From assembly GCF_001677475.2 (NCBI RefSeq), contig NZ_CP015229.1: a stretch of DNA of 64,000 bases. The stretch is one strand, 5' to 3'. Origin of the DNA: Escherichia coli. GTDB lineage: Bacteria; Pseudomonadota; Gammaproteobacteria; Enterobacterales; Enterobacteriaceae. A model generated the notes under the pieces. That model did not search any database. It was not told where the DNA came from and was given only the letters and a program-made list of their open reading frames with translations. A program made the translations under genes and the position numbers. Below are positions 15,058 through 63,988 of the stretch, piece by piece; positions within the stretch are counted from its first letter, which is position 1; each line of letters starts with the position of its first letter.

Positions 15058-16037
15058 TTGAACATCCTCGTCGCCATAATGACAAAAACAGGCGCACCAA
15101 CTAACGCCGTCATGACACCGGTCGCTAACTCATGGGGCGTGAAAAGCGTCCGAGCAATAATATCTGCCAGTAATAACAAAAGCGCGCCGACACAAGCTGA
15201 AAGAGGGAGCAGAACGCGCAGATCCGCTGATACCAGACGCCTGACAATCTGCGGTACTAGCAGGCCGACAAAACCAATGGGGCCAGCAATCGATACGGCT
15301 GCGCCACAGAGCAACGCGATCGCAAGCAGAGTGAATGTTCGCGTGCGGAGTACCGAGACGCCCAGCCCCTGCGCCATGCGATCACCCAGTGCCAACATGT
15401 TAAGAGAGGGCGCAAGGTAAATGGCTAACACAACCCCCCCCAGAGAAAACCAGGCGGACGTACCCAGCGTCGCCCAATCCTGCCCCGCTAAATCACCTGC
15501 TAGCCATGTCCGCATCGCCAGCAGTGTTTGTTCGTCAAGAATCAGGATTGCAGCCGTTATTGAGGACACGAACGCCGATAGCGCCACGCCGCATAAAGTA
15601 ACTTTCATTGGCGTTAACCCTGAACGCCCTGCGGAGGAAAGCAGCAATATCAACAGGAACAATAACGCGCCCCCCGTAGATGCCAGCAGTGGGCGTCCAA
15701 CCGGAAAGGCCAGTCCAAGCGCACTGGCGGCAACGACAGCAAGAGCGGCTCCGGCATTTAAGCCTAAAATATGTGGCTCCCCCAATGGGTTACGAATGAC
15801 AGCCTGCAACAAAGCACCAGCAACTCCAAGAGAAGCACCGGTAAGCAATGCTGCCGCTAAACGCGGCAAACGGAGTCTTACAATTACGTTGTGATCGAAG
15901 TTTTGCGGTTCAAAATGAAGAAATGCCTGCAACACCGTTTGTGGTGCAATAAATCGGGCACCAATCCCTGGATATACCACGCATCCCACCAGCAGTAAGG
16001 CGAGGAAAATTACAGTAACCAGCCCTGTGCGCATCAT
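15054..16037 (-). CDS. fitC: Iron-siderophore ABC permease (FecCD family)
   Basis: 327 aa, polytopic membrane protein. ATGA overlap with the ATPase gene. Confidence 0.9.
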   Translation of the reverse strand: MMRTGLVTVIFLALLLVGCVVYPGIGARFIAPQTVLQAFLHFEPQNFDHNVIVRLRLPRLAAALLTGASLGVAGALLQAVIRNPLGEPHILGLNAGAALAVVAASALGLAFPVGRPLLASTGGALLFLLILLLSSAGRSGLTPMKVTLCGVALSAFVSSITAAILILDEQTLLAMRTWLAGDLAGQDWATLGTSAWFSLGGVVLAIYLAPSLNMLALGDRMAQGLGVSVLRTRTFTLLAIALLCGAAVSIAGPIGFVGLLVPQIVRRLVSADLRVLLPLSACVGALLLLLADIIARTLFTPHELATGVMTALVGAPVFVIMATRMFK

Positions 16038-54475: not shown

Positions 54476-54551
54476 GGCCCCTTAGCTCAGTGGTTAGAGC
54501 AGGCGACTCATAATCGCTTGGTCGCTGGTTCAAGTCCAGCAGGGGCCACCA
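54476..54551 (+). tRNA. ileX: tRNA-Ile2 (anticodon CAU, lysidine-modified)
   Basis: 76 nt, ggcccct...aggggcc acceptor stem, anticodon loop ctCATaa, T-arm ggttcaagtcc, encoded CCA. The position after mug matches ileX. Confidence 0.92.
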
Positions 54552-54765
54552 GATTTCAATGAATTACAGATGTATCCAAACTATCTTGCTTTACCAGGAT
54601 ACTTATAGGATACCTCTGAGAAGTATTAACAAGTAAGAATTGGCTCATGCCTACAGAACAGTTGGGTCGTAGCAGCCGTTCACCTGCGAACAAGAAAGTG
54701 CTACGGGTCTGAACTTTTGCCCCCAACTCTCCAAGAGACCGGCAAAAACCCTGACGGAGGTATCA

Positions 54766-54909
54766 ATGGATACTTTAAGAAAGGGCTCAGACCTGCTGTC
54801 TGCACGTGTGATTGCCGTTACAGGTTTAATCGCAGCACTTGGCAATTTAGGTCTATGCCCAATAGCCGTAGTGCTAGTATGTATAGCTTTAGTTATCATG
54901 CTGAAGTAA
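54766..54909 (+). CDS. 47-aa hydrophobic peptide (candidate type I toxin or small membrane protein)
   Basis: Hand translation gives MDTLRKGSDLLSARVIAVTGLIAALGNLGLCPIAVVLVCIALVIMLK*. A GGAGG Shine-Dalgarno lies 7 nt upstream and a hairpin lies downstream. It is too short for the ORF track. Confidence 0.55.
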   Translation: MDTLRKGSDLLSARVIAVTGLIAALGNLGLCPIAVVLVCIALVIMLK

Positions 54910-54927
54910 TGACAGCGTAACAAGCTC

Positions 54928-54947
54928 GGCCCAGCTTTCGCTGGGCC
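54928..54947 (+). terminator. Hairpin after the 47-codon ORF
   Basis: ggcccagc-tttc-gctgggcc followed by tcccatttct, a weak T tract. Confidence 0.5.
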
Positions 54948-55356
54948 TCCCATTTCTACCTCCCAAAATCTATTAGAAACAATAAGCCACTAAAGAAAGA
55001 GCTTTTGCTGGCTACAATACTCACATACAAACAATTTTTATTTTTCGCGGGCGTAAAAAAACGATGGGGCTGGCAGTCCGGAAGACGTCAGGGTACAGAG
55101 ATTTGTACCCGCCTCTCCCTGTGCATGAGCACAATAAGTAACCGAAGGCGGAATTCCGCCCTCGGTACTCACATATGAGAAACGATATTTCTTCCACCGA
55201 TACCCTTTATTTGGGTATCGCGAGTAAGCCCCAAAATCTGGGTGTTACTCTTACTACCCAAACTACGGGTAGTTTCCGTAGTTTCATGGTCGAGTTGCAG
55301 ATCTGCAACTCACCCACCAGCCAACGCAATTTTGCGTTATCGGGAATATCAGCAAG

Positions 55357-55641: not shown

Positions 55642-55652
55642 AGTGCGCTACG

Positions 55653-56055
55653 TTACTTGTCTTTATTCGGCTGCAACTTATCCGGCACATTTCCGGTAGT
55701 TTCCATCAGGTAATCAGCCAGTATCTGTGGGAGGTTGTCGGCAACTCTGGCACTGGCATTACAGGCTTTAACCACTTCCCTTTTAAGCCCATCCAGCATA
55801 GCGGGGGTAATGTGTGGGAAGCTCCTTTGCATAGTAAGCGGGAGGCTGTCCATGATTGATGAAATCTGACTCGCCAGTTTTGAAAGCGCGTACATGCAAA
55901 ACTCTGTATCAATCACGTCACCGCGATCGCGCTCGTTTTTAAGTTCCTGCGCCTCCGCCTGTGCTGTCAGTAATCTGATCCTGACTCGTAAGTATGAGAC
56001 GACAATAACTCAGTCCGCCTGGCGCCGATTATTCTGGCCGGTTTTGTAACCTGAG
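55653..56055 (-). pseudogene. Nu1-type terminase small subunit, C-terminal part (separated from its N-terminal part by the IS; extra frameshift near 55983)
   Basis: Minus-strand translation gives ...RIRLLTAQAEAQELKNERDRGDVIDTEFCMYALSKLASQISSIMDSLPLTMQRSFPHITPAMLDGLKREVVKACNASA.... This aligns by hand with lambda Nu1 ...HRLTRAQADAQELKNARDSAEVVETAFCTFVLSRIAGEIASILDGLPLSVQRRFPELENRHVDFLKRDIIKAMNKAA (recalled from memory). Confidence 0.8.
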
Positions 56056-56085
56056 TGTCATTTACATGATCCAACAGGAAATGGC

Positions 56086-57514
56086 GTGACGCTCAATACT
56101 TCTCAGGTCAGTTACTATATGACTCAGCGTAAGAAAGGTATAACTCAGCATATCTCGGCCATGAAGGCTGGTATCTCAGTCCGTTCTGGTCGTCGGATCG
56201 AAAAAGGAGAGTGGGCAAAAAACAGTGTTCGGCACTGGCGCACACGCAAAGATCCTCTGGAAGCTGTGTGGGACAGCATGCTTGTTCCTCTGTTGAAAGA
56301 GAGGCCGGCTCTGACACCAACAACTCTACTGGAGATGCTACAGGATAAATATCCCGGCCAGTACCCCAACAGCCTTCGAAGAACAATGCAACGGCGGGTT
56401 CGCGAATGGAAACTACAGTATGGTACAGAGCAGGAGGTCATGTTCCGCCAGCAACATCAGCCCGGCCTGCGAGGCCTGTCGGACTTTACTGAACTGAAAG
56501 GTGTAGTTGTCACCATCGCCGGTAAGTTGTTGGCGCATAAGTTGTATCACTTCCGTCTGGAATGGAGCCACTGGAGCTGGATGCGGGTTGTTCTGGGTGG
56601 TGAGAGCTTCTCTGCTCTGGCTGAAGGCCTGCAGGAAGCCCTCGGACAACTGGGCGGAGTGCCGGTAGAACATAAAACGGACAGCCTGAGGGCAGCATGG
56701 AAACAACAGGGCGAAGATGGACGCCGCGAGCTGACTGAGCGTTATGCTACTCTCTGTCAGCACTACGGAATGCAGGGCGTACACAATAATGCCGGTCGGG
56801 GCCACGAAAATGGCTCGGTTGAAAGTGCCCACGGACATCTGAAAAGGCGTATCTGTCAGGCGCTGATACTGCGGGGCAGTAACGACTTCAGCACCATAGA
56901 AGAATATCAGGCCTTCATCACTCAGCAGGTTATGCGGCACAACCGTAACAATCAGGATCTGGTCAAGGAAGAACGTCTTCATCTGAAACCGCTGCCGCTT
57001 CGTCGCAGTGCTGACTATGATGAGCTGACTGTGAGGGTTAGTCGCAGCAGTACCATCAATGTGAAGCACGTCGTCTACAGCGTACCTTCCCGGCTTGTAG
57101 GTCAACTGTTACGGGTCAGGTTATGGGACGATCGTCTGAGCTGTTACGTTGGCAGCAGCGAGGTCATGAGCTGCCCTCGCGTCAGACCAGAAAAAGGGAA
57201 GACGCGGGCCCGTCGTATCGACTTCCGACATGTGATCGACAGTCTGGCAAAAAAGCCCGGTGCGTTCTGCCATGCAACGCTGAGAAATGACATCCTGCCG
57301 GACGATGAATGGCGGAGGCTGTGGCGTCGCTTATGTAATCATCTGGAGCCCGATATGGCAGGAAGGCTGATGGTACATGCCGGGAAACGTGGATCTGCAC
57401 CGGCTGATGCGCTTCCTGGGTATAAAAGAAAAGGCGTTGCCGGTAGTCAATGTGATACAGCATAACCTGAGCAGTTATGAGCAACTACTGCGTGGCAAGG
57501 GAGGTTCGCAGTGA
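56086..57514 (+). pseudogene. istA: IS21-family transposase IstA with an apparent frame disruption near the 3' end
   Basis: The track ORF 56086-57465 (459 aa, HTH plus DDE region) ends in ...HAGKRGSAPADALPGYKRKGVAGSQCDTA. The +1 frame from 57371 reads WYMPGNVDLHRLMRFLGIKEKALPVVNVIQHNLSSYEQLLRGKGGSQ*, and its TGA overlaps the istB GTG (GTGA at 57511-57514). That overlap is the canonical istA/istB junction. Confidence 0.65.
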
Positions 57515-58266
57515 GCAATATCCATCACCTTGAACATAGCCTGCGTAAACTACGCCTGACACGAGTTGGAGCTGAATGGCACGCTCTGGAAAAACGAGCG
57601 CTGGCAGAAGGCTGGACACCATCGCGCTATCTTCTGACGCTATGCAATGAAGAACTCCTGTGGCGCGAGAGTGAAAAACTGCGTCGTTATAAAAAGGAGG
57701 CCCGGTTGCCAGTTGCCAAAACGCTGAGCGAATACGACTTCAGTCAGGTGCCGGAACTGAATGGAGCTCAGTTCCGGCAACTCTGTGAAACGACAGACTG
57801 GGTTGATGCAGGAGAAAACGTTCTGCTGTTCGGAGCCAGCGGGTTGGGGAAAAGCCATCTGGCGGCAGCGATCGTGGATGGCGTAGTAGGTCAGGGCTAC
57901 CGGGCCCGGTTCTACAGCGCAGGAGAGCTGTTGCAGGAACTACGTAAAGCCAGAGCTCAGTTGAAACTGAATGAGCTGCTACTGAAACTGGATCGCTACC
58001 GGGTGATAGTGGTGGATGATCTTGGCTATGTCAAACGCGATAGTGCCGAAACGGGTGTGCTGTTCGAGTTAATAGCGCATCGCTATGAACGTGGGAGCCT
58101 GGTGATAACCAGTAACCATCCGTTCAGCATGTGGGGCAGCATCTTCGTGGATGAGACTATGGCGGTGGCTGCGGCAGACAGGCTGATCCATCACGGATAT
58201 ATGTTCGAACTGAAAGGGGAAAGCTACAGGAAAAAGACAGCGAAGGCAGTAACAAGCGCGACTTGA
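57511..58266 (+). CDS. istB: IS21-family ATP-binding helper IstB
   Basis: 251 aa, Walker A GASGLGKSH, Walker B VIVVDDLG. A GGGAGG Shine-Dalgarno lies upstream of the GTG. Confidence 0.92.
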   Translation: MSNIHHLEHSLRKLRLTRVGAEWHALEKRALAEGWTPSRYLLTLCNEELLWRESEKLRRYKKEARLPVAKTLSEYDFSQVPELNGAQFRQLCETTDWVDAGENVLLFGASGLGKSHLAAAIVDGVVGQGYRARFYSAGELLQELRKARAQLKLNELLLKLDRYRVIVVDDLGYVKRDSAETGVLFELIAHRYERGSLVITSNHPFSMWGSIFVDETMAVAAADRLIHHGYMFELKGESYRKKTAKAVTSAT

Positions 58267-58325
58267 TGTCGCCCTGAAGGGTGCGGCCAGTATAGTTGGC
58301 GCGAGTCGGCAAAACTAGTTGACGT

Positions 58326-58541
58326 CTAATATCGTAAGAGTTCATCATCATCAATCTCGCCTTTGTCGTTTGTAAGCTGGCTAATTGCATTGTTAACCCT
58401 ATTGTCTATCACGCTGGCAACATCATAAAACGCCTCACGGCCTTTACGTTCAACGGGAGTCACTCCCCACTTGTCGAATGCTGTAGCACTTACCCGGCAG
58501 CTTTGCGCCATGGTTTTTTTGTTCATCAGGTGCGATTTCAT
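58326..58541 (-). pseudogene. Nu1-type terminase small subunit, N-terminal winged-HTH part (truncated at the IS junction)
   Basis: (MKSHL)MNKKTMAQSCRVSATAFDKWGVTPVERKGREAFYDVASVIDNRV... compared with lambda Nu1 MEVNKKQLADIFGASIRTIQNWQEQGMPVLRGGGKGNEVLYDSAAVIKWY (recalled). It lies about 150 nt downstream of cosN, as in lambda. The reading frame hits a TAG exactly at the IS end. Confidence 0.75.
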
Positions 58542-58559
58542 CAATATCCCAACTTGGTC

Positions 58560-58718
58560 AAGGTTTCAGGTTGGTGTGTTGGTGTTATCTTTCCCTTTTT
58601 ATTCATGGAGATAGAGCAAACAACAAAACCACCACCACCCCCCTGAAAAAGCTCATAAATAGCGAAAAACCGCGAGGTCGCCGCCCCGTAACGGGTCCAT
58701 ATGCCGGAAAGGACCCGT
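58560..58718 (-). other. Lambda-type cos site: cosQ-like and cosN core (58651-58718) plus a divergent cosB-side region (58560-58650)
   Basis: Minus strand reads ttACGGGTCCTTTCCGGcatatggacccGTTACG GGGCGGCGACCT CGCGGtTTTTCGCTATTTATGAgc.... Capitals match the lambda right end ...ACGGGTCCTTTCCGGTGATCCGACAGGTTACG and the left end GGGCGGCGACCTCGCGGGTTTTCGCTATTTATGAAAA as I recall them. The 12-nt cohesive-end sequence lies at 58675-58686. Confidence 0.85.
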
Positions 58719-58742
58719 AAAAAAAGCCGGATTTCTCCGGCC
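58719..58742 (-). terminator. Intrinsic terminator ending the capsid operon, immediately upstream of cos
   Basis: Minus strand reads gccgga-gaaa-tccggc followed by ttttttt. A near-identical hairpin recurs at 61002-61017. Confidence 0.85.
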
Positions 58743-58747
58743 TTGTC

Positions 58748-59161
58748 TCAGATGGTTTTCAGTATGCGATCGATGTCGCCATCATCGCCCGGGTTTCTGC
58801 CAGCGTATGCCATACCAGCTGATACGGCTTTCGGGCTGTGCATGTCCATAAAGTTTTCAAAGGCTGCGGTAAGCTCTGGTGCAACCTTCTGGCGTTCCTG
58901 CTCTATGGTCATGCTAAGGATGCTTTTAGCCGTACCAACATCGATACAAGGCACGTTTGCCATTGCACGTAACAGCGGCTGATAGTCGCCAGATTCATCA
59001 AGCGCCATAATCGCATCAGAGCGCGGCTTGTCCTTCTCTTCCAGGCTGTTAAGTTGATATACGGCCTCGTAGGTTGATAAACCTCTGTCAGCCATTGCCC
59101 GCGCTTCGGCCTTAAATTTACTCGCCAGCGGTAGCGTCATGATGCTTTCATTCGTTGCCAT
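58748..59161 (-). CDS. Hypothetical 137-aa protein, last gene of the capsid block
   Basis: The ORF has a GAGGGA Shine-Dalgarno 12 nt after the gpD-like stop. I recognise no family. It is acidic with helical character. Confidence 0.6.
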   Translation of the reverse strand: MATNESIMTLPLASKFKAEARAMADRGLSTYEAVYQLNSLEEKDKPRSDAIMALDESGDYQPLLRAMANVPCIDVGTAKSILSMTIEQERQKVAPELTAAFENFMDMHSPKAVSAGMAYAGRNPGDDGDIDRILKTI

Positions 59162-59173
59162 CGTTCCCTCTGC

Positions 59174-59509
59174 TTATCGGGCCAGTGGCTGAACGGATAC
59201 GCCAGAACCCGCAAAGGCGGCGCATTTTTTCGCATCGGTGTCGACGCTCTCAGGCCAGTTAACGGCGGCGATATTAAATATCCCCGTCTTATAGCACTGT
59301 GCTGATTTCTGCGTCGACGTGTCAACGGGGTACGAGGTCAGATAAACAGCCTTGCCAGATTCCTGACCATCCCACGGCTTAAACTCGCCATTTTCCGCCA
59401 GCATCAGCGGGGTAAATTCCTGAATAACTCCAGCATCAGCGGCAAAATGTACCAGCGTCGTGGATACCTGCTGACTGCCTGCAAATAACTCAATGTATGG
59501 AGTGTTCAT
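59174..59509 (-). CDS. Head decoration protein, lambda gpD-like
   Basis: 111 aa. Shared motifs with lambda gpD (recalled): TPLML, WDG, YK(S/T)G.F, WPE, AFAG..(I/V)S(I/V). GGGGGA Shine-Dalgarno. Confidence 0.8.
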   Translation of the reverse strand: MNTPYIELFAGSQQVSTTLVHFAADAGVIQEFTPLMLAENGEFKPWDGQESGKAVYLTSYPVDTSTQKSAQCYKTGIFNIAAVNWPESVDTDAKKCAAFAGSGVSVQPLAR

Positions 59510-59520
59510 AGAATCCCCCG

Positions 59521-60576
59521 TTAAGCAATTTTGACGGTAACAAATTTGCGAATATCTGCCGGTACCGGCTGCGGTGCGCTGTGCGTCTGCACGTACTCAA
59601 TCGCCGGATCGCCATCCTCAATCCAGTTTTTCGGGTAGTACATGTTTTGCGTTGCGCCAGTTCTTACCGCTTCCGGATCCATAATCGCACCATAGGCCAC
59701 CAGCCCTTTATTGTTAGTGTTGCCCAGGACAAGCAAATCAGGCTCAAGGAAATATTTTTCGGTGCCATCGCTGTCGGTGTATTTGCCGGAATAGACGATA
59801 AGGGCCAGATCACCCAGATAGCCTTTAAAGCTCACCACTTCGCCCAGGTTTTTACAGGCCAGCTCTGCGGCGGATTCTGAACCACGGGAAAGATCGTACA
59901 GTTCACGGAATTTTTTAAAGCTGCGTAACGTGCGCCATACCTCAGCGCCCATAATCATGACGTTGGCGGGGCAACCAGCCTGATCGGTGTATAGTTCGAT
60001 GTCATAGATTGGATCGTGTGTTTCCTTATCTGCCTCAGACCACTTTTTGCCCGATCCCTGCGTAATGATGTTTTTAGTCGGGATTTTCCAGTCGATTTCG
60101 TATCTATTTATTCCTTCGCCCTCAATGATGTTTTTTCCGGTCGTGACCGCATTCACCGCCAGCCATTCTATGCGAGCTTTAATAGCGTTTACCTGGCGGC
60201 GCATGTTGCCAGTAATCAGGCGCATACGGCGATAAGTTGGATCGTTAAGCTGTGCCGGATCTTCTCCAGCCATGCGCATGATGGTTTTTGATGGATCGAT
60301 TTCGTGTTTTGGTTTCATATAGCCAGGGCGGATAGTGCTTGTTTCGTACCCTTTATCGCGCTGAACCTGACTCCCCACCATAGGCGAACAAAAAGCCGAC
60401 ATGGTGACTTCTTCAATATCCAGGGTATCTAACATGATGTCCTGCGTGTTGAAGGTTGCCACGTTCGGGAAAAACAGCGACGTAAACAGCGGACTGAATT
60501 TAAATTCCGAAATATCCCCACGATTCAGGTACGCGAAAAGCTGGTTAGTGTTAAGTGCCGTTGCTTTGCCTGTCAT
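59521..60576 (-). CDS. Major capsid protein, lambda gpE family
   Basis: 351 aa. FKFSPLFTSLFF vs lambda FKFDPLFLRLFF; PGYMKPKHEIDP vs PGYVKPKHEVNP; DPTYRRMRLI vs DPAYRRRRII; YPKNWIEDGDPA vs YPKNWVTTGDPA (lambda recalled from memory). Confidence 0.9.
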   Translation of the reverse strand: MTGKATALNTNQLFAYLNRGDISEFKFSPLFTSLFFPNVATFNTQDIMLDTLDIEEVTMSAFCSPMVGSQVQRDKGYETSTIRPGYMKPKHEIDPSKTIMRMAGEDPAQLNDPTYRRMRLITGNMRRQVNAIKARIEWLAVNAVTTGKNIIEGEGINRYEIDWKIPTKNIITQGSGKKWSEADKETHDPIYDIELYTDQAGCPANVMIMGAEVWRTLRSFKKFRELYDLSRGSESAAELACKNLGEVVSFKGYLGDLALIVYSGKYTDSDGTEKYFLEPDLLVLGNTNNKGLVAYGAIMDPEAVRTGATQNMYYPKNWIEDGDPAIEYVQTHSAPQPVPADIRKFVTVKIA

Positions 60577-60782
60577 TATTCACCCCCATGAGTCTGATTC
60601 ATGCCCAGCGCCGCGCGTAAATAGGCGCGTACCTGCCAGCCTGTTGACGGCTCAACCATCGCCAGCGGCTCAAGTCCTGCCGCAATGCCTGCTTTTACGT
60701 TCTGCTGGTGGCGTTCCTTGAGCGCCTCCACGATGTCTGGGCTTATGTAAACTGTCACCCCGCCTTTTTTCTCTTCTGCCAT
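60576..60782 (-). CDS. Hypothetical 68-aa protein, first gene of the capsid block
   Basis: MAEEKKGGVTVYISPDIVEALKERHQQNVK... from the ATG at 60782 with a GAGGAA Shine-Dalgarno. Its stop overlaps the capsid ATG (TAATG). The track ORF starts 11 codons earlier. Confidence 0.55.
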   Translation of the reverse strand: MAEEKKGGVTVYISPDIVEALKERHQQNVKAGIAAGLEPLAMVEPSTGWQVRAYLRAALGMNQTHGGE

Positions 60783-60810
60783 AGTCGGAAATTCCTCTTT
60801 GACGTTAAAA

Positions 60811-60846
60811 ATCACAACTGGATGTTCATCCAGTTGTGATTATAAT
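60811..60846 (-). promoter_or_regulatory. 30-bp perfect palindrome (operator candidate) abutting a symmetric GATTATAATC -10 element
   Basis: atcacaactggatg-tt-catccagttgtgat (60811-60840), with TATAAT readable on both strands at 60839-60846. It lies about 30-60 nt upstream of the first capsid-block gene. Confidence 0.6.
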
Positions 60847-60950
60847 CATGATTTCATTTTACGCAATAATGTTGAGTTGTGTTGCAAATTGTGAAATGAT
60901 TTCCGGCAACAGTAGTCACCATACTGTTAGATAAAAGCCTCATATGCAAA

Positions 60951-60988
60951 AGCCCGATAAGACCCTCTGACCTTATCGGGCTTTTTTT
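60951..60988 (+). terminator. Strong hairpin plus T7, oriented for the plus strand
   Basis: agcccgataag-accctctgac-cttatcgggct followed by ttttttt. No annotated plus-strand gene lies upstream. Confidence 0.6.
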
Positions 60989-61985: not shown

Positions 61986-63803
61986 TTAATTTTTGCTATC
62001 GTCATTAGTGACTGATACACATGATGGCATCCAGTCTTCTGATTCCTCCGTCAGTGTCACGTTTGAACGTAAACCGTGCTTCGTTTTCCGTTTTATATAC
62101 TCCCTGCCATATTCCGCCATTGCCCCAGGCATATCTTTACCGAAGCGCGTCAGTGTTACAGGTTTACCAAACCCATGAGCCCTCATATAAGCCAGATAGG
62201 CATGATAGAGATACCTGCGCGGGCTGAATGGCACAATTTCAGCATTACCCACTAACAGGCCATCACACATTACCGACGCCATGAGATAGCCGCAGAAGTC
62301 CACCAGCGAATCCCCCTCTCGCTTTATCGCCAGTGCTTCTTCAGATTTCTGCTGCTCATATAACAGGCGTCTGGCTTCGTCCTGGTCAGCAAACCTTGTA
62401 AGCAGATGGCGAATCACTACCGCCAGCTCACCTTCTATTTTTTCCGCCAGCATCGGATCGCGTTCGTTCTCCGGTACAACTTCCGAAAAATTGAATATCA
62501 CCCGACGACGTGAGATCCCCCCGCTGCGGTCACTGAATGACATGGCGTTATTGTTAACCGCCAGCACTACTGCCGGAATACGCGTTGAGTAGGGGGCTTT
62601 GTGTTTCGGGTCAATTGCCACCTTGTCACCGCCTGTAATGGCCTTAATTCCTGCCCCATCACCAGCGTAGCGGGTCATATCCGGCATGATAATCAGCGAA
62701 AAGCCAACCACTAACGCGCGTTCCCTTGCATCTTCCAGCGCCTTCATGCTTGCCGATACTGTGTTGGCCTTACCCGCCAGCATGGTGCAAATCTCCGCCA
62801 TCACGCTTTTACCACTTCCCCCTGGACCTGTTACCTCAATGAATAACTGCCAGTCGTACCGGTTCGCCAGCACCATGAATAATGCAGCCAGTACGCGATC
62901 CGCCTTGCGGTCATTCTCAGCCACCGAACGGCGTAACCACTTCCAGAAATTCGGCGCATGTGTTGCCAGCGTTTCCCCCTCTGCTGGTGGGCTGAAAGGT
63001 AATTCACTGGCAATTAACAACCAGTCGTTTTTGTTATGCTCCCGAAAATTACCTGTTCTGGTATCAAATACCCCGTTACTGAATCCAATCAGGTTACGGG
63101 CTGTATTCCCCATTACAGGCAAACTTAACTTCATGGTATCGACCGCCGATTTAATGGCGTTCTGCGAATAGCTGATCTCCGCATCAATGAAAATCTGCGC
63201 CATAGCACGCTGTAACTCTTTATCCTGAACCGGCTCCCATACAACGCCGTTGTAATGGTGAACAGTGTCAGAGTCAGCATGAATCGCCAGTTCACCGCCA
63301 TAATGTGCCAGGAGAACTTCGCCGCGTTGACTTGCTCCCATCTGGTTAAGCGCCAGTGATGAAGCGTTATCGTCTTTTACCCGCTCTTTTTTCTTTACAG
63401 GCAGTTCAACTACCTTTTTCTTTTCCGCCAGCTCTGCCCGTTCACGTTCCAGATATTCGCGCCAGTTCTCCCGTTTCTGGCTGTGCATTCCTTCAGGATA
63501 ATAATCAGCATCCCTGACACCTGCCGCTGCCAGTTTCTGCCCGATGGTATTAACAAGCCCCGGACGCAATAACCCCGCCTGGTAGAGACGCACACGATAG
63601 CGTCCGTCCGGTACGATTTGCAGGTTGTCCAGTTCGGCAAGTTGTTGCTCTCCAAGCCAGACAGGAGGCACGTTATCGCCAGCCAGTCGCCCGTCCTGTT
63701 CCTGCCACTGCTTCGCATGTGCCCACGCATCACTACCCGCAAAAATGATGACTTCCGTCATTTTGTCACGTGGCTGGTGTTTTAAATTTGGCGCTTTTTT
63801 CAT
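61986..63803 (-). CDS. P4/D5-type primase-helicase (N-terminal primase-like region, D5_N, SF3 helicase)
   Basis: About 605 aa from the ATG at 63803 (MKKAPNLKHQ...), Walker A GPGGSGKS, Walker B-like SLIIMPD. The ATGA overlap with the upstream small ORF supports this start. Confidence 0.88.
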   Translation of the reverse strand: MKKAPNLKHQPRDKMTEVIIFAGSDAWAHAKQWQEQDGRLAGDNVPPVWLGEQQLAELDNLQIVPDGRYRVRLYQAGLLRPGLVNTIGQKLAAAGVRDADYYPEGMHSQKRENWREYLERERAELAEKKKVVELPVKKKERVKDDNASSLALNQMGASQRGEVLLAHYGGELAIHADSDTVHHYNGVVWEPVQDKELQRAMAQIFIDAEISYSQNAIKSAVDTMKLSLPVMGNTARNLIGFSNGVFDTRTGNFREHNKNDWLLIASELPFSPPAEGETLATHAPNFWKWLRRSVAENDRKADRVLAALFMVLANRYDWQLFIEVTGPGGSGKSVMAEICTMLAGKANTVSASMKALEDARERALVVGFSLIIMPDMTRYAGDGAGIKAITGGDKVAIDPKHKAPYSTRIPAVVLAVNNNAMSFSDRSGGISRRRVIFNFSEVVPENERDPMLAEKIEGELAVVIRHLLTRFADQDEARRLLYEQQKSEEALAIKREGDSLVDFCGYLMASVMCDGLLVGNAEIVPFSPRRYLYHAYLAYMRAHGFGKPVTLTRFGKDMPGAMAEYGREYIKRKTKHGLRSNVTLTEESEDWMPSCVSVTNDDSKN

Positions 63804-63988
63804 TTCTGCTCTCTCCACGCGGCAATCATGTTTTTCAGTTCCTGTAGTTTTTTATCAACATCCATACATGACACATGGTTATTTCTGGAAGGCGGGATTT
63901 CCCGCCGGAATCTGCAAATAAAGATCTCCACGTTCAGCGAGCTATGAAATGAATAGCCATCACGAATAAAATACACACGGTCAAACAT
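63800..63988 (-). CDS. Hypothetical 62-aa protein translationally coupled to the primase-helicase
   Basis: ORF MFDRVYFIRDGYSFHSSLNVEIFI...KKLQELKNMIAAWREQK. Its stop overlaps the primase ATG. Confidence 0.45.
   Translation of the reverse strand: MFDRVYFIRDGYSFHSSLNVEIFICRFRREIPPSRNNHVSCMDVDKKLQELKNMIAAWREQK

Follow-up and report, generated by a model that had tools for sequence, protein, structure and literature searches.

A capsid, decoration and scaffold gene block in an EcCICFT073-type satellite island of Escherichia coli, and its possible use with a helper phage

Why would a phage satellite that has to borrow most of its particle from a helper keep capsid genes of its own? The question is raised by a stretch of 64,000 nucleotides of E. 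coli chromosome (contig NZ_CP015229.1, assembly GCF_001677475.2; this whole stretch is called the window below), in which rpoD, mug and a tRNA-Ile(CAT) gene at 54476-54551 are followed by an integrated island. The island is a Gram-negative phage-inducible chromosomal island (PICI) of the EcCICFT073 type, located at tRNA-Ile (ileX). At positions 58748-60782 it carries four tightly packed open reading frames (ORFs), listed here in the order in which they are read:

60576-60782, minus strand: orf68, 68 aa, a satellite-specific small protein and candidate ribbon-helix-helix (RHH)-like DNA binder
59521-60576, minus strand: major capsid protein (MCP) of the lambda gpE family, 351 aa
59174-59509, minus strand: head decoration (cement) protein (Dec) of the lambda gpD family, 111 aa
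58748-59161, minus strand: orf137, a predicted free-standing Nu3-type scaffolding protein without a protease domain

The answer we favor, to which we give a probability of about 0.45, is that the MCP, the cement protein and the scaffold form a satellite “shell kit” that would be used together with the portal, protease, terminase and tail of a helper, likely in heads of lambda size.

The two larger structural products could be assigned by profile and by alignment. The MCP matched Pfam PF03864 (Phage_cap_E) at 3e-52 (178 bits, cut-off 22.9), over profile positions 14-328 of 329, and phrog_29 at 5e-110, and it was collinear with lambda gpE over its full length at 43% identity. Dec matched Pfam PF02924 (HDPD) at 5e-18 (65.8 bits, cut-off 29.1) and phrog_49 at 2e-27; it was 37% identical to lambda gpD across its C-terminal 76 aa, its N-terminal arm being unaligned. 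The original prediction for this locus, made from the sequence without database searches, had named gpE and gpD homologues and had described the order orf68-E-D-orf137 as unlike that of lambda, and both statements are borne out. In lambda the order is C/Nu3, D, E, and D came before E, and Nu3 before D, in all phage records that allowed both hits to be positioned. On the other hand, E preceded D in all 11 of the satellite loci that we examined. One predicted protein of 463 aa (P0094), on a short contig, carries the Phage_cap_E and HDPD domains together; this looks like a fusion of E and D or a read-through, and may be an assembly or frameshift artefact.

The third component is orf137, which had been proposed as a possible source of scaffold. 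This proposal held up: orf137 matched phrog_1999 at 7e-62, a profile that lambda Nu3 itself matches at 3e-26, and it matched the C-terminal end of phrog_53 (“head maturation protease”) at 1e-8. Nu3-like fragments match phrog_1999, phrog_53 and phrog_8399 (“head scaffolding protein”) jointly. When the orf137 family was compared with scaffold families by profile, as had been suggested, hhalign paired it with the C-termini of Nu3/gpC at 98.2% probability (E 6e-14, 121 columns). By BLASTP, orf137 (residues 49-131) was 36% identical to part of a lambdoid S49 protease/scaffold of 501 aa (residues 416-493, 9e-10), and tblastn of orf137 against 50,697 phage records gave matches confined to Nu3 regions. 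Finally, a 447-aa S49 peptidase occupies the orf137 slot in a Lelliottia PICI, and orf137 aligns to its residues 311-413. Because the PHROG, BLASTP, tblastn and hhalign results and the Lelliottia slot all agree, we predict from its sequence that orf137 is a free-standing, protease-less scaffolding protein of the Nu3 type.

Several further properties of orf137 bear on this assignment. The family is narrow: a hidden Markov model search returned 12 hits among 1.84 billion representatives, with no full-length S49 protein at library-wide significance, and the link to Nu3 comes from the PHROG profiles, the database-level tblastn and hhalign. The AlphaFold 2 model is all-helical with a pLDDT of 47, which is too low-confidence for a fold search and might be what is expected of a flexible scaffold. 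The protein has two helical repeats where the scaffold region of helpers has three or four. Its C-terminal motif, F-E/D-x-F/Y-M-x-x-H-S-P-x-x-V, is common to phage-21-type Nu3, which suggests a possible shared binding partner. NCBI names the family “phage head-tail connector protein”; we found this name unsupported, the evidence being that of a Nu3-type scaffold, and the new assignment would help to correct the annotation.

The rest of the island explains what a helper would have to supply. An intact copy in E. coli TUM1886 is 99.9% identical and runs for ~11.2 kb from tRNA-Ile to an attR repeat just past the integrase gene, in agreement with the satellite genome of roughly 10-15 kb that had been predicted. 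Its gene order is tRNA-Ile, hypothetical, Nu1-like terS (small terminase), orf137, Dec, MCP, orf68, ssb, hypothetical, primase, DUF4222, Icd-like, helix-turn-helix (HTH) and integrase. A 48-bp repeat corresponding to the 3' end of tRNA-Ile lies at 54506-54553 of the window and, ~11.2 kb away, at the far end of the TUM1886 island. The primase gene (61986-63818) and ssb lie inside the window; the island extends past the window end, and the HTH, Icd-like, DUF4222 and integrase genes were read from the TUM1886 copy, the integrase lying outside the window. In the complete gene list of the TUM1886 island there is no gene for a portal, protease, large terminase, connector or tail, and no lysis gene is annotated. 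These functions are therefore needed from a helper.

With these parts, the shell kit could be used as follows. After helper induction the operon would be transcribed from its own promoter, and orf68 would possibly bind the palindrome located there. The satellite scaffold and MCP would assemble shells on the helper portal, either alone or mixed with helper subunits; the helper gpC-type protease would then remove the satellite scaffold, and the satellite gpD-like trimer would cement the expanded shell. Redirected by TerS or Rpp of the satellite, the helper large terminase would package cos-to-cos concatemeric satellite DNA. The role of the kit would be partial capsid autonomy or compatibility, and not size redirection. 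That shells form at all, and that the satellite MCP and scaffold fit the helper portal and protease, we infer from the sequences.

Three further features belong to the operon:

60841-60846, minus strand: candidate promoter -10 element, TATAAT, abutting the palindrome
60810-60841, minus strand: perfect 15+15 nt palindrome (32 bp), candidate operator, 28 nt upstream of the orf68 ATG
58719-58742, minus strand: hairpin GGCCGGA-GAAA-TCCGGC followed by T7, directly 3' of the orf137 stop and kept in CFT073

The start of orf68 is the ATG at 60782 with AGAGGAA ahead of it, and PGAP annotates the identical 68-aa ORF in relatives. The TAA of orf68 and the ATG of the MCP gene form TAATG, a 1-nt overlap at 60576 that points to translational coupling, and the remaining gaps are 11 nt (MCP to Dec) and 12 nt (Dec to orf137). 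Every start has a G-rich Shine-Dalgarno sequence ahead of it, read off the sequence (GGGGGTGA, GGGGGA, GAGGGA). The four ORFs, their coupling, their 0-12 nt spacing and their good Shine-Dalgarno sequences are thus all present where they had been predicted. The palindrome keeps perfect symmetry in CFT073 through a matched change on both arms and is imperfect in the O145 allele; it remains a candidate operator. The hairpin after orf137 looks like an intrinsic terminator ending the operon. It was read directly from the sequence and was not among the calls of a consensus terminator scan. Together with the hairpins found 3' of ssb at 60948-60985, it brackets the four genes as a separate transcription unit.

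In the PICIs of Salmonella, Edwardsiella, Lelliottia and other E. coli lineages, orf68 homologues likewise adjoin the MCP gene upstream, with a stop that overlaps the MCP start. We found no relative of orf68 in the 50,697 phage records, and its resemblance to RHH DNA binders is weak. Because a palindrome abutting TATAAT lies upstream of its ATG, we read orf68, at low confidence, as a probable DNA-binding regulator and not a component of the shell. The alternative that it is a scaffold or assembly factor, which had been raised together with the same idea for orf137, is unlikely for a protein that has no phage relative and is weakly RHH-like rather than structural.

Has this block been seen before? 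It is the already-described capsid module of the EcCICFT073-type PICI, of which the capsid gene c1499 and the decoration gene c1500, together with the ORFs on either side, were published by Fillol-Salom et al. 2018 (PMC6092414). EcCICFT073, the prototype of the Gram-negative PICIs, shares the four genes, their order and their lengths (68, 351, 111 and 137 aa), at 91-96% nucleotide identity per gene. They lie downstream of the primase gene and ssb, and in CFT073 a PerC-family gene separates ssb from orf68. Beyond orf137 the prototype has the same terminator and a lambda cosN, then RppA (c1503, 144 aa) and a second cos. The two islands differ in that RppA follows the cos in EcCICFT073 and a Nu1-like TerS follows it here, and in that integration is next to phoQ in CFT073 and at tRNA-Ile here; the window copy is also interrupted by an IS21-family element and has lost its second cos. 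Helper induction and high-frequency transfer have been demonstrated for the prototype only (PMC6092414, PMC6739421). Of 29 reference Gram-negative PICIs, 21 have capsid genes, which are dispensable for transfer (PMC10111431). No paper that we found gives the capsid genes of Gram-negative PICIs a function, treats the two small ORFs or names Nu3 in connection with PICIs. The Nu3-type assignment is accordingly the new detail, and it recasts what seemed stray capsid and decoration genes as parts of one coherent kit, with MCP, cement and scaffold present and only the portal and the protease missing.

The published work on the prototype also bears on the size of the head. It had been argued from the present sequence that a genome of roughly 10-15 kb cannot fill a T=7 head, and that a dedicated shell, built around the helper portal, could be smaller. 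The genes for such a shell are there. The reasoning on size is contradicted in the prototype, which has the same block: virion DNA of lambda with EcCICFT073 was all phage-sized, “ruling out” size redirection (PMC6092414), so that the smaller head, itself an earlier hypothesis, failed the one direct test made of it. The model island is packaged as ~45 kb concatemers (PMC10111431).

Four units of 11.2 kb likewise amount to ~45 kb, or ~92% of the length of lambda, and such a tetramer fits a T=7 head. The packaging ratios of P2/P4 and of 80alpha/SaPI1 are ~0.35; scaled from them, a T=4 head would hold ~17 kb and would be under-filled by a unit of 11.2 kb. Because the prototype DNA is phage-sized and four units come to ~45 kb, lambda-sized shells are most likely.

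It could nevertheless be speculated that the MCP and a short, two-repeat Nu3-like scaffold build heads of T<7 on the helper portal, with room for one or two satellite genomes but not for the genome of the helper. We consider this unlikely. It is in keeping with orf137 being a true scaffold homologue with fewer repeats than that of the helper, and with the precedents of the SaPIbov5 capsid homologue Ccm and SaPI1 CpmB; moreover, PmCI172 has an MCP homologue and makes small heads (PMC6092414), capsid-forming PICIs (cf-PICIs) make small capsids from their own proteins, and strong purifying selection implies a role that is not redundant. However, besides the phage-sized DNA of the lambda-helped prototype and the fit of the tetramer, deletion of c1499 or c1500 changed nothing in the prototype (PMC6092414), and the MCP is collinear with gpE with no indel suggesting an altered geometry.

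The deletions are equally relevant to a second possibility, that the MCP, Dec or the scaffold co-assembles with helper subunits or competes for the scaffold-binding site in the manner of CpmB, thereby poisoning lambdoid capsids. The module would then be a defence that benefits both host and satellite, against the helper or against lambdoid phages that are not helpers. Satellites often interfere at the capsid step, and the C-terminal motif that the scaffold has in common with helper Nu3 makes cross-binding plausible. However, lambda plating was not restored when c1499 or c1500 was deleted (PMC6092414), that is, interference was not relieved, although such a phenotype could be masked by a dominant block of RppA on TerS. 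In addition, there was no match to any PADLOC defence model, and the conservation of a full-length MCP with its cognate Dec exceeds what a poison needs. Interference is therefore quite unlikely.

The relatives of the block argue that it has a long history in satellites. Among the 417 matching phage records the closest match to the MCP (Gifsy-1 and phage-21-like phages) was 47% identical, whereas PICI MCPs from Escherichia, Salmonella, Edwardsiella, Lelliottia, Serratia, Cedecea and Scandinavium were 52-93% identical to it. A scan of the GTDB species-representative genomes with the MCP gave no relative, and contigs with MCP homologues were used instead; an NCBIfam search gave no informative hit. 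Eight related loci were recovered through these homologues, and all eight have a PICI backbone with E before D; the locus order of the Cedecea and Scandinavium relatives lies outside the examined set. In E. coli, the block was found in 1223 of 5426 complete genomes, with at least 80% of it in 594.

All four genes are under purifying selection. Pairwise ratios of nonsynonymous to synonymous substitution (dN/dS) between close alleles were 0.06-0.13 for the MCP, 0.06-0.18 for Dec, 0.09-0.30 for orf68 and 0.21-0.35 for orf137; these come from close pairs only, and the values for window-L007 and Dec-L006 are invalid as sequences of equal length were compared unaligned. The block is thus an old, selected, satellite-specific module and not a recent capture.

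This history leaves little room for a third possibility, that the genes are a back-up copy or a decaying capture of helper origin, kept mainly because PICIs embedded in a helper interrupt its genes E, B or C, and of little function in islands integrated elsewhere. Such embedded relatives do exist: they sit in helper gene E and in the portal gene and carry their own E and D (PMC10111431). Among our loci, one of Edwardsiella tarda (L008) lies in the portal gene of a lambdoid prophage and one of E. coli (L010) in a prophage capsid gene E; each has its own E-D pair, which adjoins the D-E pair of the helper. The prototype also tolerates the knock-out (PMC6092414). On the other hand, no phage MCP is more than 47% identical, which argues against a recent capture, dN/dS is 0.06-0.35, the gene order is fixed and unlike that of phages, and islands integrated at tRNA genes or elsewhere in the chromosome have the block intact. 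We regard the back-up explanation as very unlikely.

Some observations also weigh against the shell kit that we favor. What follows D differs: the E. coli islands have a Nu3-like gene, the Lelliottia island a full S49 protease/scaffold gene, another clade a gene for an AlpA/Rpp-like HTH protein, and those of Salmonella and Edwardsiella nothing. With the scaffold gene absent from the last two and replaced by the AlpA/Rpp-like gene in another clade, the kit is not always complete. The RHH assignment of orf68 is weak. Above all, deletion of c1499 or c1500 had no effect on interference, as described above, or on transfer by resident prophages (PMC6092414; restated in PMC10111431), and any role must therefore be redundant or helper-specific under laboratory conditions. 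Simple redundancy, however, fits poorly with a dN/dS of ~0.1 across genera. Some one-fifth of complete E. coli genomes have all or some of a block that is strongly selected, yet the only published tests saw no phenotype.

Downstream of the operon lies the packaging region of the island, which has two features:

58652-58686, minus strand: lambda-type cos site, with cosN GGGCGGCGACCT at 58675-58686 and flanking bases
55652-58544, minus strand: Nu1-like small-terminase gene (terS), split by an IS21-family element into an N-part (58332-58544) and a C-part (55652-55992)

The cosN GGGCGGCGACCT has one exact match in the window, 62 nt after the orf137 stop, and the cos site equals the left end of lambda at 34 of 35 aligned bases. 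Intact relatives have two inverted copies of lambda cosN flanking terS/rpp (15209-15220 and 16076-16087 in L001; 42559-42570 and 43298-43309 in L004), and these correspond to cos1 and cos2 of a 2019 paper. In the window copy the second of these is gone, removed by a deletion of ~249 bp near 55646-55652. The insertion element spans ~55993-58331, with istA at 56086-57465 and istB at 57511-58266, and blastn against TUM1886 shows a 7-bp overlap at its junctions. With terS interrupted and only one cos left, the window copy is probably defective in packaging and not transferable. Its positions 54553-55034, which separate the tRNA/att site from the first conserved gene of the island, have no counterpart in the TUM1886 island, and the next 600 bp are only 88.5% identical.

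The product of an intact terS is 180 aa long (L001 15400-15942) and matches Pfam Phage_Nu1 at positions 77-162 (3e-23), that is, only in the C-terminal half of the profile; its N-terminus is unrelated. As EcCICFT073 has RppA in this slot, the 180-aa TerS may, judging from its sequence, be a second way of redirecting the helper large terminase to the satellite cos.

Two further loci are of interest for the range of heads and kits. The capsid kit of the Lelliottia sp. SL45 PICI (L013 9409-10752) is richer than that of the E. coli islands and reads, in order, orf75, E, D, the 447-aa S49 protease/scaffold gene and a gene for a 142-aa HTH protein. The 19.9-kb record of Escherichia phage vB_EcoM-569R10 (L016, ON470596.1), labelled “complete genome”, is a fragment in which lambda-type head genes (W, portal, C/Nu3, D, E) accompany P2-type contractile-tail genes and the portal is annotated as ParB. 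A Salmonella PICI situated among P2-type tail genes had suggested a helper with a non-lambda capsid; we dropped this idea, as coliphage records pair lambda-type heads with P2-type tails.

Compared with lambda, the island has the same three protein families as head genes C/Nu3, D and E, and a lambda-type cosN. It differs in its permuted order (E, D, Nu3-like), in having the scaffold as a separate gene with no protease, and in lacking the portal, protease, W, FI and FII; identity to lambda is low, at 43% in the MCP and 37% in Dec (as above) and only 22% in the scaffold. Satellite P4 is likewise a small cos satellite of E. coli that has a P4-alpha-like primase and brings its own decoration function, but it encodes no MCP and uses P2 gpN, with Sid as external scaffold and Psu as decoration protein; no sid, psu or delta gene is annotated in the gene list of the island, in which no dedicated profile search for them was made. 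SaPI1 CpmB and SaPIbov5 Ccm are also relatives or mimics of a helper scaffold or MCP that are encoded by a satellite in a late operon. They are functional analogues: both act on the helper capsid protein and demonstrably give small heads, whereas here there is a full set of MCP, Dec and scaffold and the prototype gives no small heads.

Another comparison is with cf-PICIs of the EcCIEDL933 type, which have the same type of int, alpA and rep backbone and whose capsid proteins are also satellite-encoded. These islands carry portal, protease, head-tail connector, HNH, TerS and TerL (large terminase) genes and need only the tails of a helper, whereas the present island has, of all these, only a TerS-like gene. 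With its natural helpers, perhaps phage-21-like or Gifsy-like, the shell kit might build satellite-specific capsids on a stolen portal, perhaps smaller than T=7; this seems to us quite improbable. If it is true, the protease-less Nu3-like scaffold would be a determinant of size or specificity, and islands such as this one would be intermediate between the classical PICIs, which steal whole capsids, and the capsid-forming PICIs, which steal only tails.

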